Part shown: positions 7,496-21,649 of the stretch, piece after piece | Layout of the letters: each line of letters begins with the position of its first letter | How positions within the stretch are numbered: position 1 is the stretch's first letter | Sequence record: NC_022968.1 | Reading direction: 5' to 3' (one strand) | DNA: 64,000 bases | Source of the DNA: Escherichia phage 4MG | Made by a program: the position numbers and the translations under genes | The notes under the pieces: generated by a model | What the model was told of the DNA's origin: nothing | Databases searched by the model: none | What the model saw: the letters and a program-made list of their open reading frames with translations, nothing else

Positions 7496-9511
7496 ATGAT
7501 GGGAAATGGTCCGGATTGGGCTGCTTACCGACAAGGTGGACAGGAGAACCCGAAAGCACAGAATTTTGGAAGTAAAGGCAATCGTGGAGGAAGAGTGAGT
7601 TATCAGCAACGTGAAGAAGAGACCCTGGAATCTGTAGTCAATGGCACCCGCATTCTGCCAGTTCCTGAAATGAGTCTCTCTCTCGACGCAGCAAAATATT
7701 TTAAGATCCGTTCGTCTGTGTCCCCAAGCGACGGTGTAACGATCACCGCAACCTATTTGCCATATTATGACAAGTACGGTAAGCTCACGGGATACAAAAA
7801 ACGTGACTGGACTTTGCCAAAAGAGAAGAAAGGTCACTTCTCTGTGGTGGGAACGGTAAAAGCCGCCTCCCAGTTCTTTGGTCAACATGAAGCCGCTATG
7901 GGCGCAGGTCGTAAGCAGATCTTTGTCGTAGAGGGTGAAGGGGATGTTACCGCTGGCTGGCAGGCAGGTTTTGAGTTTGTAAAGGCTCTGCAAGCAAGCC
8001 CTAATGCACCGAAGGGTGTTAAGGATTGGGCTACAAGCGTTCTGAAAGGGATCACCTCTATCCAGAATGGTGAAGAAGTTGCAGGTGTTCCGACATTGCC
8101 GTTTGTCGGATTAAACTGTGGTACAGCTAACGCAGTGGATACATTTGCCAACAACGAGAAGTTCATCCGTGGATATGAAAAGGTTGTTCTCGGTTTCGAT
8201 AACGACGAAGCGACGGCTCTTGAGAAGGAACGTAAGGTCAAGAAAGGTAAGGAAGCAACAGATGATGTAGCGGCGTTTCTGCTGACAGACAACATCTTCG
8301 TAGCCCGTTACCCTAACGAGCGTAACGACCCCTCTGGTGTCAAAGATGTCCGTGACATGTATGATGCTGGGAAGGGACGTGAAATCTGGAACATGTTCTC
8401 CAAGGCAGAAGACCGCTATGTCCCTGACAAGCTGATCAGCCTGAGCAACATTACCATCGAAAATCTTCGTAAGAAGAAGAAAGATGGTGTTCCATTGCCG
8501 GGTATGCCTCGTCTTTACGAGCTAACCAAAGGTCCTCGTACCGGGGAGTTGTGGACTCTGACAGGTCCTTCTGGTGGTGGTAAGTCAACCATCTCCCGTA
8601 AGATCGAGTATGCTATCGTTAACTACCTTCGCGATATGAGCATTCCTCGTCTTGATGGTTGGACGGAGCATGAGAAGGTTGCGATCATTCGTCTGGAAGA
8701 GGATGAGGAAGAGTCTGTTAACAGCTTGTATGCTGAAGAGTTGAAGGTTGACCCGAAAGCATTCGTTGCAGACCCTGAGCAGTTCTTGACTGAAGAGCAG
8801 CACCTTGAGATTCACCAACGCTGGATCAAGGAAGATAAGATCAAGATCTTCGATCACTTCGGCTCCATCCCTACGGATCAATTGATCCAGAAGTTGAAGC
8901 AGATGGTATTCCTTGATGGTTGTAAGTGGATTATCCTCGACCACCTGAGCATGGTGATTTCTGGTCTTAAGTCAGATAACGAACGTCGAGATCTGGACAA
9001 CATCATGACCGAGCTTGCTGCATTCTGTAAGCAGTACGATGTGTTCATTCTCAGCATTAGTCACATGAAGCGTAAAGAACTTCAACTACCGAAGGACAAA
9101 GACGGCAACATGTTGCCTTTCTGGTATCCTGTACGTAAAGAAGATCTCCGTGGTTCTGCCGCACTGGAACAGCTATCCTGGATTGTATTGGGTGTTGAAC
9201 CAGAAGAACTTCCAGACCGCTCTCGTGGACGTGTGCGTGTGGTTGTAATGAAGAACCGCCCACACAAAAAACTTGGTGTCGCAGACACTATGATCATGGA
9301 CGAAAACGGACAATTCACTGATGCGTCTGGTTGGGTATGGGAAGATGGGATGTTTAAACTTGATGGTGCGGTTATGCTTCGCCCTGAGGGTATGATTCAA
9401 TCTCTGCAACTTGAGACCCCGGTAGGTAAGGTCAATGTACCAGCACCTGTCGCTGAGGCTCCTGTTCAACTTCCTAATCCACAGGACTTTGATAACGATA
9501 CCCCGTTCTAA
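7496..9511 (+). CDS. DNA primase-helicase (Toprim + DnaB-like helicase, T7 gp4-like organisation)
   Basis: 671 aa; Toprim-like GFDNDEA; Walker A GPSGGGKST; Walker B IILDHL; C-terminus DFDNDTPF resembles SSB acidic tail. Confidence 0.8.
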   Translation: MMGNGPDWAAYRQGGQENPKAQNFGSKGNRGGRVSYQQREEETLESVVNGTRILPVPEMSLSLDAAKYFKIRSSVSPSDGVTITATYLPYYDKYGKLTGYKKRDWTLPKEKKGHFSVVGTVKAASQFFGQHEAAMGAGRKQIFVVEGEGDVTAGWQAGFEFVKALQASPNAPKGVKDWATSVLKGITSIQNGEEVAGVPTLPFVGLNCGTANAVDTFANNEKFIRGYEKVVLGFDNDEATALEKERKVKKGKEATDDVAAFLLTDNIFVARYPNERNDPSGVKDVRDMYDAGKGREIWNMFSKAEDRYVPDKLISLSNITIENLRKKKKDGVPLPGMPRLYELTKGPRTGELWTLTGPSGGGKSTISRKIEYAIVNYLRDMSIPRLDGWTEHEKVAIIRLEEDEEESVNSLYAEELKVDPKAFVADPEQFLTEEQHLEIHQRWIKEDKIKIFDHFGSIPTDQLIQKLKQMVFLDGCKWIILDHLSMVISGLKSDNERRDLDNIMTELAAFCKQYDVFILSISHMKRKELQLPKDKDGNMLPFWYPVRKEDLRGSAALEQLSWIVLGVEPEELPDRSRGRVRVVVMKNRPHKKLGVADTMIMDENGQFTDASGWVWEDGMFKLDGAVMLRPEGMIQSLQLETPVGKVNVPAPVAEAPVQLPNPQDFDNDTPF

Positions 9512-9573
9512 TCCATTCGACCAACTGATAGGTGGGCGACGATACAGTCAAGCCCACCTTGCATAGGAGGAAC

Positions 9574-12288
9574 ATGAAAGGTTTGTTTATAACGGACAAC
9601 GAAGCCGATGGTCTGTTAGATGAAGTAACTAAGTACCACTGTACCCTTTTGAAGGAATACGGTGTTAACAACTGGAATCTGTTTTTAGATCCAGCACACC
9701 CAGAGTATGAGAGTGCAGTAACTTTCGCGAAGAGCAAGACGGAAGCCAATCTCAAGATCCGCTCATATGATGAGCTTGAGGCGTTCCTGAAAACTTGCCG
9801 TGGCATTGCGTGTCACAATCTGTTTGGTTACGACCTGCGCCTCTGGAAGAAGCTGTCTGGTATTGAATATGATATGTTCAAAGACCCTAAGTGTCTTGGT
9901 ACAATTGGGGATGCCCAGGTGAACCTATACGACACCTTATCAATGAGTCGTGTTCTTTATCCAGACCGTCCACTGCCTAATGGTTGCCCGGACTCTGTAC
10001 TTAACCCGGTCACTGGGAAAAGGGACCGAGTGGGTCCTCACGGCCTTATGGCATGGGGCTATCGTGTAGCCAACAAGAAGGTGCAGATTGACGATTGGCG
10101 TAACCAACCGCTCTGGGAATACGTTAACCGTGTGTGGGAAGACGTACTGATCAACGAACTAACGTGGAAAGCATTGATCGATGAATCCACTGGTGCTCGT
10201 TGGCCTGATGACAAGCAGTTCATGTATACAGACAAGCCAGAAGGTCTTCGTCAGATTAACTGGAAAAATGCTCTTCGTCGTCGTATGCTTACTGACTACC
10301 TGATGATTGAGCAAGAAATCCAGGGTGTACCGTTCAACAAGCATGGGGCTGAGAAACTTCGTGATCGCATTGATGTGATGATGAAGGAGATTGAGGAAGA
10401 GGTTGAGCCGCTGTTGCCACTGAAAGAGATGACGAAATCTCAACAGCCTAAGTTCCCGGCTAATCCGTTCGACGGGGCAGGGAATATTTCCCACCACGGG
10501 TGGAACTGGCTTCAGTACAAGCTTGGCTATCCGGTCAATCGTGAGGCACTGGAATTCAAGGGTCCACCAAAAACCGCATTTAAGGGTAATGGTGAGGTGA
10601 GTGCAGCAGGGGAACGATACTGCATTCAGAATGGTATTGAAGATCCGGCTATGTTTGGTGACTACATCCGGGAACAACGTCAGAAAGAAAACACCTTGGT
10701 TCCTCTGCCTCCAGACCTGATGGAGAAGGCCAAGGAGGATTTACGTAACGGAAAGATGCCTGACCTAATGGTTCCGATGAAGATTTCGAACCAGGACGAC
10801 ATCAAGAAATACCTGATCCGCGATGCTGACTGGAAGCCTACCTTGTGGCGTGTCAAGGATGTTACAAAAGACCAGTTCAAGAAGGCGCGTACTGACCCTG
10901 AGATCGATGATTTGGTCAGGAAGTACATTGAGGAATTGGGCGAGTCTGAGTATAAGTCTCTGATTATAGAGCACTTAAACAACTCGGATGAGAAGTTCAA
11001 TATCTCCGAAAGGAAGTTTGATCATCGACATGCCTCAGAGAAAGGGTATGCGGAGGTCTTTAAGAAGTTCAGACGCAAGGCGCGTATGCTCCCAACATCA
11101 CCGCAGTTGAAGGATAACTTCGGCAAGCTGTGTCCGAACCTCGAACGTATTGATGTTCACTTGGCTAAACAGATTGTTAAGTGGCTGTCATTGCGTAACC
11201 GTCGCTCTGTTCTCGACCCGATTGACGAGGATAAGAACGATACCGGGTTGTTGAACCACCCTCGCCTGGCGATTGATGGTAAACTTCCTGCACGATTCTC
11301 TGGTATCACCAACACCGGGCGATGCAAGCATACCATTTGTGCAAACATGCCTAAACCAGATCCGAAGGTGTTGTTGGGTAAAGAGATGCGTGGACTTTGG
11401 GGAGTAACAAAGGGTTATTACCAGGTTGGTATTGATGGTTCTAACCTCGAAGGGATGGTCGCCGCATGGGGTGCATATCAGTTTGACGGCGGCGAATATT
11501 TGCGTATAATGGAGAGCGGAGATGCTCACGCACGAAACGCAGAGGCATACACCAAAGCATCAGGAACGCTCGTTACTCGTAACGGTGGTAAGGGTGTTAC
11601 ATACGGGATCATGTATGGTGCTCAGGCAGCAAAGATTGCTGCTATGCTTAACATCTCCCTCGATAAAGCACAGGCGGTAATTGACGCTTTCTGGGATAGC
11701 AACTTTGGGTTGAAGGGTCGTAAGGAATGGCTTGAAAACTTCTGGGAAGCTACCGGGAAACGTTATATCCCTGGCTTAGATGGACGTAAGATCTGGACTC
11801 GCTCCAAGCACTCACTCCTGAATGCTTACCAGCAGAATGGTGGTGCTTCCCTGTTCGACTTGGTTGGTATCCTGCTTCACTGGGAACTAATCAAACGTGG
11901 TTGGTACGATGATGATGTTCGCCGCCTCATCTACTATCACGATGAATACCAGCTTCAGGTTCCAGAAAAGTACCTGAAGAAATGGAAGTTCGACACTCTT
12001 GAAGAGGCTACCGCCTTTGTCAAAGAGTGGGAAGCAAAAGGCCGTGTATTCGACGGTCACGAGTGGAGAAAAGCGGTCAAGGATGAGAATGGCGATAAAG
12101 TCAAAGATGCTGAGGGTAACACGGTTTACGAAGGTATCTTTGGTGAAGATGGTAAGATTCAGATCCAGTATTGCCCTGTTGGTGAGATGGTTGTGAAATG
12201 TGTCGAGAAAGCCGCTAAGATGATGGGTTCTCCGGTTCATATCACGGGCGCTTACCTGACTGGTAAGAACTGGGCTGAATGCCACTAA
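9574..12288 (+). CDS. DNA polymerase, family A, with 3'-5' exonuclease motif
   Basis: ATG at 9574 after AGGAGG; Exo I-like FITDNEADG; motif B RNGGKGVTYGIMYG; motif C YHDEYQ. Confidence 0.85.
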   Translation: MKGLFITDNEADGLLDEVTKYHCTLLKEYGVNNWNLFLDPAHPEYESAVTFAKSKTEANLKIRSYDELEAFLKTCRGIACHNLFGYDLRLWKKLSGIEYDMFKDPKCLGTIGDAQVNLYDTLSMSRVLYPDRPLPNGCPDSVLNPVTGKRDRVGPHGLMAWGYRVANKKVQIDDWRNQPLWEYVNRVWEDVLINELTWKALIDESTGARWPDDKQFMYTDKPEGLRQINWKNALRRRMLTDYLMIEQEIQGVPFNKHGAEKLRDRIDVMMKEIEEEVEPLLPLKEMTKSQQPKFPANPFDGAGNISHHGWNWLQYKLGYPVNREALEFKGPPKTAFKGNGEVSAAGERYCIQNGIEDPAMFGDYIREQRQKENTLVPLPPDLMEKAKEDLRNGKMPDLMVPMKISNQDDIKKYLIRDADWKPTLWRVKDVTKDQFKKARTDPEIDDLVRKYIEELGESEYKSLIIEHLNNSDEKFNISERKFDHRHASEKGYAEVFKKFRRKARMLPTSPQLKDNFGKLCPNLERIDVHLAKQIVKWLSLRNRRSVLDPIDEDKNDTGLLNHPRLAIDGKLPARFSGITNTGRCKHTICANMPKPDPKVLLGKEMRGLWGVTKGYYQVGIDGSNLEGMVAAWGAYQFDGGEYLRIMESGDAHARNAEAYTKASGTLVTRNGGKGVTYGIMYGAQAAKIAAMLNISLDKAQAVIDAFWDSNFGLKGRKEWLENFWEATGKRYIPGLDGRKIWTRSKHSLLNAYQQNGGASLFDLVGILLHWELIKRGWYDDDVRRLIYYHDEYQLQVPEKYLKKWKFDTLEEATAFVKEWEAKGRVFDGHEWRKAVKDENGDKVKDAEGNTVYEGIFGEDGKIQIQYCPVGEMVVKCVEKAAKMMGSPVHITGAYLTGKNWAECH

Positions 12289-20478: not shown

Positions 20479-21618
20479 ATGAGCGTAATTACTGAAGTAG
20501 TGAACCCGGCTGATGATTCTGTTGCACTGAAAGCTAAAGGTGTGATCAAACGTATCTTTATCAAGCGTATCAACGCCGATGGTTCACCTAAGGTAACCAA
20601 CATCACCAAGGGTCCAAACAAAGGGAAATCTATTTCCGCGACCCACCGTTATTCCATTCTGCTGACAGCGGGGGGTGTTGATGAATTCGTATCTTTCGGT
20701 GAGGGTGAAGTTAAAAACCTGAAGTACGAAAACCAGTTCCAAGTTAAAACCGACGATGGCTATAAAGATTTGCTGCCCGGTGCAGAGATCTCCATCTACC
20801 CGGTTGAGAAACAGGAATATCAGAAAGATGGTGAAACCAAAGTTTCTTACCAAGGCAAGCGTAAGAACATCAAGATTCTGGTAGATGCACCTGCTGATGC
20901 GGCTCCACAGCAATCAAGTGCTCCGGCACAAACTGGCGGTGCAAAGGGTGCTAAGATCTACGGTGAGATCCTGTCTATCGACGGCAACGTTGCGGTTGTT
21001 AACGATGAGAAGCAGGGTGAGGGGCGTGTGGTTCTGACTGCCGATCAACTAGCAGAGGTTTCTGTGGGTGGTCGTCTGGCTGCTTTCGTAGATCTTTCTA
21101 CAGGCAACATCATCAACAGCTTCAAGGCCTATGGCCCTGTTGGTCAAGGTGGTGGTTCTGGTGGGAAAGGTAAGCGTACCCCTTACGATCCTGTGGGTGT
21201 ATCTGCTGGTCATGCCATGAACGCACTGGTCAACCTGAAGCTGTCAGGCTTTAAGGGTGACGTAGAGGCGGCAGGCAAGGTTGTTCATGATGTGACAACC
21301 AAGCTGATCAAGGAACTTTCCGAAACTGAAGGAAAAGATGTTGGTCAGACTGTAGGTAACGCTGTTAAGTTTGCTGTGACAAACATTGCTGTTAAAGGCA
21401 AGGTTATCGACGCAGATGAACTGGAGAAGGCAACACGCGAAGCGTATGCCCTTGCAGCGACGTTCTATGCATACGCCAGTGCAACTGCACAGGAAGAGGC
21501 TCAGAAGCCAGCACAGAGCGCCCCAGAGCCGCAGGTAGGCAATGGTACAGTATCTGCACCGCCTGTTGATTTCGATGACACCCCTCCTCTGGACTTCGAC
21601 GACGATATTCCGTTCTAA
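20479..21618 (+). CDS. single-stranded DNA-binding protein-like, with bacterial-SSB-type acidic tail
   Basis: ATG 20479 after AAGGAGAGAGA; C-terminus ...VDFDDTPPLDFDDDIPF, identical in its last 8 residues to the canonical E. coli SSB tip. Confidence 0.6.
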   Translation: MSVITEVVNPADDSVALKAKGVIKRIFIKRINADGSPKVTNITKGPNKGKSISATHRYSILLTAGGVDEFVSFGEGEVKNLKYENQFQVKTDDGYKDLLPGAEISIYPVEKQEYQKDGETKVSYQGKRKNIKILVDAPADAAPQQSSAPAQTGGAKGAKIYGEILSIDGNVAVVNDEKQGEGRVVLTADQLAEVSVGGRLAAFVDLSTGNIINSFKAYGPVGQGGGSGGKGKRTPYDPVGVSAGHAMNALVNLKLSGFKGDVEAAGKVVHDVTTKLIKELSETEGKDVGQTVGNAVKFAVTNIAVKGKVIDADELEKATREAYALAATFYAYASATAQEEAQKPAQSAPEPQVGNGTVSAPPVDFDDTPPLDFDDDIPF

Positions 21619-21626
21619 ATAAGAAA

Positions 21627-21649
21627 GGCTCCCGATTGGGAGCCTTTTT
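21627..21649. terminator. bidirectional rho-independent terminator between convergent genes
   Basis: GGCTCCC-GATT-GGGAGCC hairpin with T-runs on both strands. Confidence 0.65.

Follow-up and report, generated by a model that had tools for sequence, protein, structure and literature searches.

Matching acidic, phenylalanine-ended tails on the primase-helicase and an SSB-like protein of Escherichia phage 4MG: candidate docking ends of a T7-type replisome

Introduction

What do two replication proteins of one phage gain from ending in peptides that resemble the end of SSB, a bacterial protein that binds single-stranded DNA? This question is raised by a 64,000-nt window of Escherichia phage 4MG (NC_022968.1), in which a primase-helicase ends in QDFDNDTPF and a second, SSB-like protein ends in DFDDDIPF. 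The latter octapeptide is the C-terminal tip of Escherichia coli SSB (SSB-Ct), which serves over a dozen proteins of genome maintenance as a hub. A preliminary description of the window took both tails for mimics of this tip, and suggested that they recruit the partners of host SSB or compete for them. Here we weigh that proposal against the possibility that the tails principally serve the phage's own replication machinery, as the corresponding tails of phage T7 do.

Part of the ground is already known. A preprint (bioRxiv 10.64898/2026.04.29.721553) has described the SSB-like protein together with its SSB-Ct-like end, and the helicase tail is an expected trait of gp4-type helicases. What is new here is the link of both tails within a T7-type replisome, the quantified conservation of both, and a portable peptide module that extends them.

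Two related tails in one window

Both tails are real, related to each other and beyond chance. The helicase open reading frame (ORF) of 671 aa ends in ...LPNPQDFDNDTPF, which places QDFDNDTPF within the range 9470-9511, as the preliminary description had it. The 379-aa ORF at 20479-21618 ends in ...APPVDFDDTPPLDFDDDIPF; its tail reads VDFDDTPPLDFDDDIPF, again in agreement with what had been claimed. The attribution of DFDDDIPF to the host is likewise correct, since SSB of E. coli K-12 ends in ...EPPMDFDDDIPF and shares 8/8 terminal residues with the SSB-like protein. The helicase tail matches the E. coli tip at 6/8 positions and the T7 gp4 end, DWSNDTDF, at 5/8, the two helicases aligning as D-aromatic-x-N-D-T-x-F.

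All stop-to-stop ORFs of at least 40 aa were scanned for the C-terminal motif D[FWY][DE][DEN][DET][IVLT]PF, and the expectation was computed from the window's own amino-acid composition. Two of the 729 ORFs match, namely these two alone, against 6.7e-6 expected. The same two proteins are the sole carriers of such tails among the 1,230 ORFs of EC152, the closest complete genome used for comparison.

The primase-helicase and its tail

As judged from its matches, the first of these proteins is a homologue of T7 gp4 with a RecA-type, DnaB-like hexameric helicase domain. It matches DnaB_C (E 2e-14) and AAA_25 in Pfam, PHROG 239 'DNA primase/helicase' (E 1e-163, residues 25-671 covered), and the T7 gp4 structures 5ikn and 6n7i in the PDB (E 5e-26), the range of matches, 1e0j included, reaching 3e-21. 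It and its counterpart in Escherichia phage 4MG are 100% identical. A weak match to phrog_47 'DNA primase' spans residues 88-305 (E 6.5e-5), and the PDB alignment begins at T7 residue ~110/174. T7 gp4 carries an N-terminal CDNC...CYVC zinc finger that is used in primase site recognition; in contrast, a Cys4 zinc-binding domain is absent from the N-terminus of the window protein, because residues 1-207 contain no Cys and the first is residue 208. The corresponding segment (7496-8120, ~208 residues) is instead rich in Gly, Gln and Arg.

The tail was followed through 120 homologues, down to about 47-48% identity. Phe is the last residue in 109 of them, Pro-Phe the last pair in 105, and an aromatic residue closes 115; among the last 10 positions, acidic residues average 3.8 and basic ones 0.1. 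The peptide itself varies by clade (DFDNDTPF, DLDSDSPF, DDMDGSPF, EDEDCPF, DEPF). A flexible acidic C-terminal tail with a terminal aromatic residue is thus, on this alignment evidence, a trait of the whole helicase family. Position -3 is polar in the homologues (T/S/E/C), as opposed to I/L in SSB-Ct, and for this reason the helicase tail is no faithful mimic of SSB.

Many of the helicase homologues (P0152-P0188, P0197-P0208, P0223-P0226) measure 916-1025 aa rather than about 670 aa, and one of them, P0226, contains intein or LAGLIDADG homing-endonuclease Pfam domains; together these observations point to relatives whose helicase gene has acquired inteins. There is none in the window copy.

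The SSB-like protein and its invariant tip

The tip of the SSB-like protein is conserved far more strictly. Across 120 homologues, with bodies down to 35% identity, [M/L]-D-F-D-[D/E]-D-I-P-F is kept in all 120, invariant or nearly so: D372, P378 and F379 are invariant, and F373, D374, D376 and I377 are conserved in at least 90%. The linker that precedes it is hypervariable. Some homologues are identical to E. coli SSB over 12 residues (EPPMDFDDDIPF), and the tip does not change across phages of Enterobacterales. Four of its eight codons differ from those of E. coli ssb, all synonymously, which argues for selection on the peptide and not for a recent transfer of DNA; a recent capture of the 3' end of host ssb was ruled out on this ground. 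Taken together, the conservation patterns indicate that both tails are under strong selection.

In the tail of this protein the motif is duplicated in tandem: VDFDDTPP, which resembles the helicase's DFDNDTPF, stands before LDFDDDIPF. The duplication is common to the closest subfamily (e.g., PPVDFDNDPPMDFDDDIPF), and more distant members have GHIDM[ST]PP in its place.

Upstream of the tip, the sequence of the protein is unrelated to SSB and to gp2.5. It falls in phrog_4477 (E 2e-147), which PHROG labels 'function unknown', and is annotated as 'hypothetical' in 221 phage records. The protein has no Pfam match at E<=0.01, the OB signature PF00436 included, and no sequence relative among PDB entries. 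When the family profile was compared with E. coli SSB by hhalign, only the 13-column tip aligned (E 8e-8), and tblastn of E. coli SSB residues 141-178 against the window matched 21526-21615, that is, linker and tip only. Nothing in the profile aligns with T7 gp2.5. Beyond the SSB tip, the profiles link the body to neither protein.

The predicted structure gives a different picture. An AlphaFold2 (AF2) model built from 61 homologues (mean pLDDT 81) contains an OB-like fold whose structural neighbours are SSB, RPA and LEF-3, and the most basic segments of the protein, residues 18-32 and 121-135, lie in its N-terminal beta-domain. On the strength of the model, "SSB-like" is a valid label at the level of fold and architecture, although not as family membership, so that the term used in the preliminary description stands in the former sense and fails in the latter. 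Its phrase "two replication proteins" fares similarly: one is a gp4-type primase-helicase, and the other is an OB-fold protein with SSB architecture by predicted fold. Searches by tblastn of the window and of the whole EC152 genome revealed no canonical SSB or gp2.5, nor do the annotations list one, which makes the SSB-like protein the best candidate for the phage's SSB.

A T7-type core and its proposed docking tails

The gene that follows the primase-helicase encodes a family-A DNA polymerase whose top PDB relatives are structures of T7 gp5 (E 4e-21, vs 5e-8 for Taq). By BLASTP, it matches T7 gp5 in the palm and fingers (E 1e-22) and in the exonuclease region (E 9e-11). With a gp4 homologue beside a gp5 homologue, the phage possesses a T7-type gp4 plus gp5 core. 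The gap between the two genes is 62 nt (9512-9573) and empty of inserts. In relatives this junction is an insertion hotspot, which holds a Cys-rich endonuclease in GAP31, a classic HNH endonuclease in L023, and unrelated small ORFs in L019, L020 and L024.

In T7, the two proteins concerned end in DWSNDTDF (gp4) and EADEDGDF (gp2.5). For gp2.5, Kong and Richardson reportedly found in 1998 that the tail of E. coli SSB is tolerated. The gp4 tails, acidic and C-terminal, contact gp5 at two basic patches, on the front and near the thioredoxin-binding domain, and when they are removed processivity falls from 17 kb to about 5 kb (PMC12593628). [quoted passage not shown] Such tails, which dock on the phage's own polymerase, are a closer precedent than the host SSB cited in the preliminary description, which missed them (PMC12593628, PMC12339929).

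The most economical reading, and in our analysis the most likely, is that both window tails are this lineage's docking tails for the gp5-like polymerase. The helicase tail, composed of a linker, an acidic stretch and a terminal aromatic residue (...D-F-D-N-D-T-P-F), would be the lineage's version of the T7 gp4 tail, and six such tails per hexamer could tether the polymerase encoded by the adjacent gene to the fork. The 20479-21618 protein would be the phage's ssDNA-binding protein, a functional analogue but not a homologue of gp2.5, in which two OB-like domains are followed by a helical oligomerisation domain and this by a disordered linker with an acidic tip. This tip may compete with ssDNA for the basic OB surface of its own protein and may dock at the same surface of the polymerase (or helicase) as the helicase tail, which would couple the coating of ssDNA to synthesis. 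Since no residue of it differs from the host SSB-Ct, it could also fit partners of host SSB, for instance ExoI, whose pockets are hydrophobic with a basic rim. For the combined proposition, protein-docking ends of a T7-type replisome with possible cross-talk to the host, we put the case at about evenly balanced.

The polymerase itself is permissive of tail docking as far as its sequence goes. A charge scan, which on T7 gp5 recovers the known patches as the most basic 15-mers, singles out residues 497-511 (KKFRRKAR...), 532-546 (...WLSLRNRRS) and 226-240 of the window polymerase, and these basic segments are conserved over 21 related loci. WLSLRNRRS is invariant in all 21, down to 30% overall identity; it lies where the alignment to T7 gp5 is not confident.

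Several points weigh against polymerase docking as the whole explanation. Opposite KWKRR, the front basic patch of T7 gp5, the window polymerase has a shortened GKRY, so that the patch is only partly retained, and an equivalent of the thioredoxin-binding domain could not be mapped in the window polymerase by sequence comparison with T7 gp5. The match of the SSB-like tip to host SSB (8/8, up to 12/12 in homologues) exceeds what an electrostatic polymerase contact would need; this excess identity, which is absent from the DEDGDF of gp2.5, suggests some constraint from host-type SSB-Ct pockets. The SSB-like tip is fixed while the helicase tail drifts between clades, and the two tails need not share all partners. 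Finally, many relatives (rV5, GAP31, KpS8) carry a 15-aa extension after the Phe, which would mean that viability does not strictly depend on a free terminal Phe.

Host mimicry as an alternative

The proposal of the preliminary description, that mimicry of host SSB is the primary function, is the strongest competitor, but we consider it possible rather than probable. The tails would then insert into the SSB-Ct pockets of host proteins (ExoI/SbcB, RecQ, PriA, chi, RNase HI, Topo III), which would be recruited to phage forks or titrated off host SSB. The tip is identical to SSB-Ct across 8 residues in the window protein and as many as 12 in homologues, and it is invariant over phages of Enterobacterales, both of which favour such a function; SSB-Ct pockets recognise terminal Pro-Phe plus acidic residues (PMC3632105).

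Genetic evidence comes from an orthologue, Bas52_0087 of phage RudolfGeigy, which aligns with the SSB-like protein over its full length (BLASTP 36% identity, E 2e-58). In a preprint of 30 April 2026, Bas52_0087 was needed for activation of the DRT10 defence, the escape mutants were D252V and Y351C, missense only, and host-SSB mimicry with interference in SbcB-ExoI was proposed as a hypothesis; the primase-helicase tail, a replisome role and a T7-type reading are not mentioned there (bioRxiv 10.64898/2026.04.29.721553). The orthologue is genetically linked to SbcB dosage as well as to DRT10 activation. Escape mutants of the missense class alone would fit an essential gene. On the other hand, the escape mutations fall in the helical domain and not in the tip (D252 and Y351 correspond to D237 and Y330 of the window protein, D237 being conserved in at least 90%), and Bas52_0087 expressed alone is neither toxic nor a trigger.

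The helicase tail fits mimicry less well. It departs from SSB-Ct at -3 (T/S/E/C for I/L) and at -5, it resembles the polymerase-docking tail of T7 gp4, and the trait reaches distant helicases. Moreover, polymerase, ligase, exonucleases and EndoVII are all encoded by the phage, which makes a need for host partners less obvious, and the extension after the Phe would cost the free C-terminal carboxyl, which may contribute to binding (PMC3632105). The mimicry claim is best divided: it is plausible for the SSB-like protein, given its 8/8 identity, and less apt for the helicase with its polar -3 residue. That the tails recruit host partners is plausible.

A portable extension after the terminal phenylalanine

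The extension mentioned above is a conserved 15-16-aa peptide, AP[IV]GLQY..h.[IL][HY].[ILV], which follows the Phe in 19/120 SSB-like clusters and 2/120 helicase clusters (including many Klebsiella phages). It occurs on three non-homologous families, i.e., canonical, bacterial-type SSBs of otherwise unrelated phages (ECH1, HK75 and Vibrio phage BT-1011), the SSB-like protein of Vequintavirinae, and the gp4-like primase-helicase. The window has neither extension nor insert, and a terminator stands directly after the SSB-like gene.

The extension often abuts homing-endonuclease genes. A Cys-rich endonuclease ORF begins within it in GAP31, rV5 and ECH1, and these three endonucleases share an N-terminal C..C.KCG..K.L.EFYKH..M.D...NKCKEC motif; a Pfam search with those of GAP31 and rV5 returned no match. 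These three cases first suggested that the extension is merely the 5' end of a homing-endonuclease cassette. This was rejected, because HK75, BT-1011, KpS8, SSBI34 and Kashira have the extension without an endonuclease, and L019, L020 and L024 have inserts without the extension, as has the locus with the HNH gene. A literal string search of the literature for the peptide returned no paper. The comparison indicates that the extension is an independent, portable peptide module that would bury the otherwise terminal Phe, and one that treats the three tail types as equivalent.

This distribution admits a further explanation, which we regard as unlikely: the D-x-D-x-P-F tip could act as a portable 'address label' that helicase and SSB alike carry, spelled in the SSB-Ct code of the host, with the extension as a transferable switch of the tip. 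If so, the whole phage fork would plug into, or block, the host pockets (ExoI, RNase HI, Topo III, PriA, chi), and the switch would mask or re-target the tip, for instance as an escape from defences by which phage SSB-like proteins are sensed. Natural pairs of alleles, one that has the 15-aa extension and one that lacks it (rV5 vs Bas52/RudolfGeigy; GAP31 or KpS8 vs the window), bear on the need for a free Phe.

Autoregulation and coincidence as less likely alternatives

Less likely than host mimicry is autoregulation, in which each acidic tail would fold onto the basic DNA-binding surface of its own protein, the OB groove in the SSB-like protein or the face that holds DNA in the helicase/primase, and tune affinity or cooperativity with no specific heterologous partner. 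The gp2.5 tail of T7 does compete with ssDNA for its OB domain and speeds dissociation (PMC10359462). In the window protein, the two most basic segments sit in the N-terminal beta-domain, and in the monomer model pLDDT is slightly higher in the tip (52-61) than in the linker (38-40). Electrostatic self-masking, however, needs neither an invariant I-P-F end nor identity to host SSB, leaves the terminal dipeptide common to helicase and SSB unexplained, and coexists with partner binding in every studied system (T7, E. coli, T4). Coincidence, i.e., low-complexity acidic ends without specific function, is very improbable and effectively refuted by the conservation data, for although acidic disordered C-termini are common in DNA-binding proteins, it would have to account for two matches where 6.7e-6 are expected, a tip held in 120/120 homologues beside a hypervariable linker, and codon differences from host ssb that point to selection at the peptide level.

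Genomic setting

The window is of the Seunavirus, rV5-like, phage 4MG type. Its DNA is 83-91% identical to that of Seunavirus and other Vequintavirinae (rV5-like) myoviruses, e.g., EC152, GAP31 and PVP-SE1, with EC152 (91%) as the top DNA match within the phage collection. rV5-like phages are common on E. coli, Salmonella and Klebsiella, and appear in collections of therapeutic isolates. The features discussed are listed in Table 1. One further acidic, aromatic-terminated end is found in EC152, where the class Ia ribonucleotide reductase beta subunit, whose location in the window was not established, ends in ...DDTDGETWDF; we take this to be the usual alpha-binding beta-tail, presumably with no relation to the replisome tails.

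Table 1. Positions of the tails, their genes and related elements (window positions, or positions within the locus named)
Feature	Position	Strand	Remarks
Primase-helicase gene	7496..9511	+	671 aa (ATG 7496) or 670 aa (ATG 7499); AGGAG Shine-Dalgarno upstream
Helicase linker, flexible, Pro/Val-rich	9401..9481	+	Translation SLQLETPVGKVNVPAPVAEAPVQLPNP; variable in homologues, tip kept
Helicase C-terminal tail	9482..9508	+	QDFDNDTPF; stop codon 9509-9511
Family-A DNA polymerase	9574..12288	+	904 aa; T7 gp5 homologue; proposed receptor of both tails
Polymerase WLSLRNRRS	about 11182-11211		Polymerase residues ~537-546
SSB-like protein gene	20479..21618	+	379 aa; ATG behind strong AGGAG Shine-Dalgarno; phrog_4477; orthologue of Bas52_0087
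N-terminal beta-domain	20479..20883	+	Residues 1-135; predicted OB-like
Second small beta-domain	20947..21132	+	Residues 157-218; AF2 model; orthologue described with two OB-fold domains
Four-helix domain	21190..21489	+	Residues 238-337; AF2 model; putative oligomerisation
Disordered Pro/Gln/Ala-rich linker	21490..21564	+	Residues 338-362; pLDDT 38-40; cf. disordered linker of bacterial SSB
SSB-like tail	21565..21615	+	VDFDDTPP-LDFDDDIPF; DFDD present twice, the second time in the tip identical to SSB-Ct; stop 21616-21618
Terminator-like hairpin, bidirectional	21624..21647		Between SSB-like gene and convergent tail-fibre/Ig-domain gene
Bas52_0087	L012 1501-2727		Orthologue in RudolfGeigy
Extension, GAP31 helicase	L003 1501-1554
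Extension, rV5 ORF214	L004 2010-2057
Extension, ECH1 canonical SSB	L009 1210-1257		...EDDIPF-APIGLQYGMSNIYVL
Extension, HK75 canonical SSB	L010 1210-1257		...DFDDDIPF-APVTLPFPRHAIHAI
Extension, Vibrio phage BT-1011 canonical SSB	L011 1210-1257		...DDDIPF-APIGLQYGRNLLHVI
Extension, further cases	L013, L014, L015
Junction insert, GAP31	L003 1544-2041		Cys-rich endonuclease
Junction insert, HNH	L023 2495-3004		Classic HNH endonuclease
Junction inserts, small ORFs	L019 2351-2974; L020 2473-2943; L024		Unrelated small ORFs
Ribonucleotide reductase beta subunit, EC152	L006 36334-37422		Class Ia

Comparison with known systems

If the T7-like reading is right, rV5-like phages would offer a second, evolutionarily distant case of a replisome whose helicase and SSB are tied in through matching tails, acidic and ending in Phe. 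The SSB in this case would be a non-homologous one that bears the host's SSB code at its tip. It would also turn two matters into testable questions, namely whether the tip of a phage SSB acts on the polymerase of the phage, on the host's SSB interactome or on the two together, and how the DRT10 defence senses the SSB-like protein.

The T7 replisome is matched in having a homologous helicase and polymerase encoded by adjacent genes, in combining gp4-like and gp5-like proteins in one genome, and in equipping helicase and SSB each with a flexible acidic tail that ends in Phe. It differs in its SSB, of which the 379-aa window protein, with two beta-domains and a helical domain, is no homologue; in tails that end in D-F where those of the window end in P-F, the SSB tip here being the host SSB-Ct; and in its front basic patch, which the window polymerase keeps only in part.

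E. coli SSB has the same last 8 residues as the SSB-like protein and the same succession of an OB part, a disordered P/Q-rich linker and an acidic-hydrophobic tip ending in DDDIPF. Unlike it, the window protein lacks PF00436, shows no profile similarity beyond the tip and has an extra beta-domain and a helical domain, and in the window phage the motif sits on a helicase too. Bas52_0087 of the Vequintavirus RudolfGeigy is a full-length orthologue with the same domain order, the same FDDDIPF tip and conserved escape positions; the window belongs to Seunavirus, and its protein has the duplicated DFDD motif. A last parallel is the SSB of phage HK620, the tail of which (NDYPPF) is required for the cognate annealase Sak4 (PMC5928155). 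There, as proposed here, an SSB-Ct-like tail engages a phage-encoded rather than a host partner, although the HK620 protein is a canonical bacterial-type SSB and its partner is a recombinase instead of a replisome polymerase.

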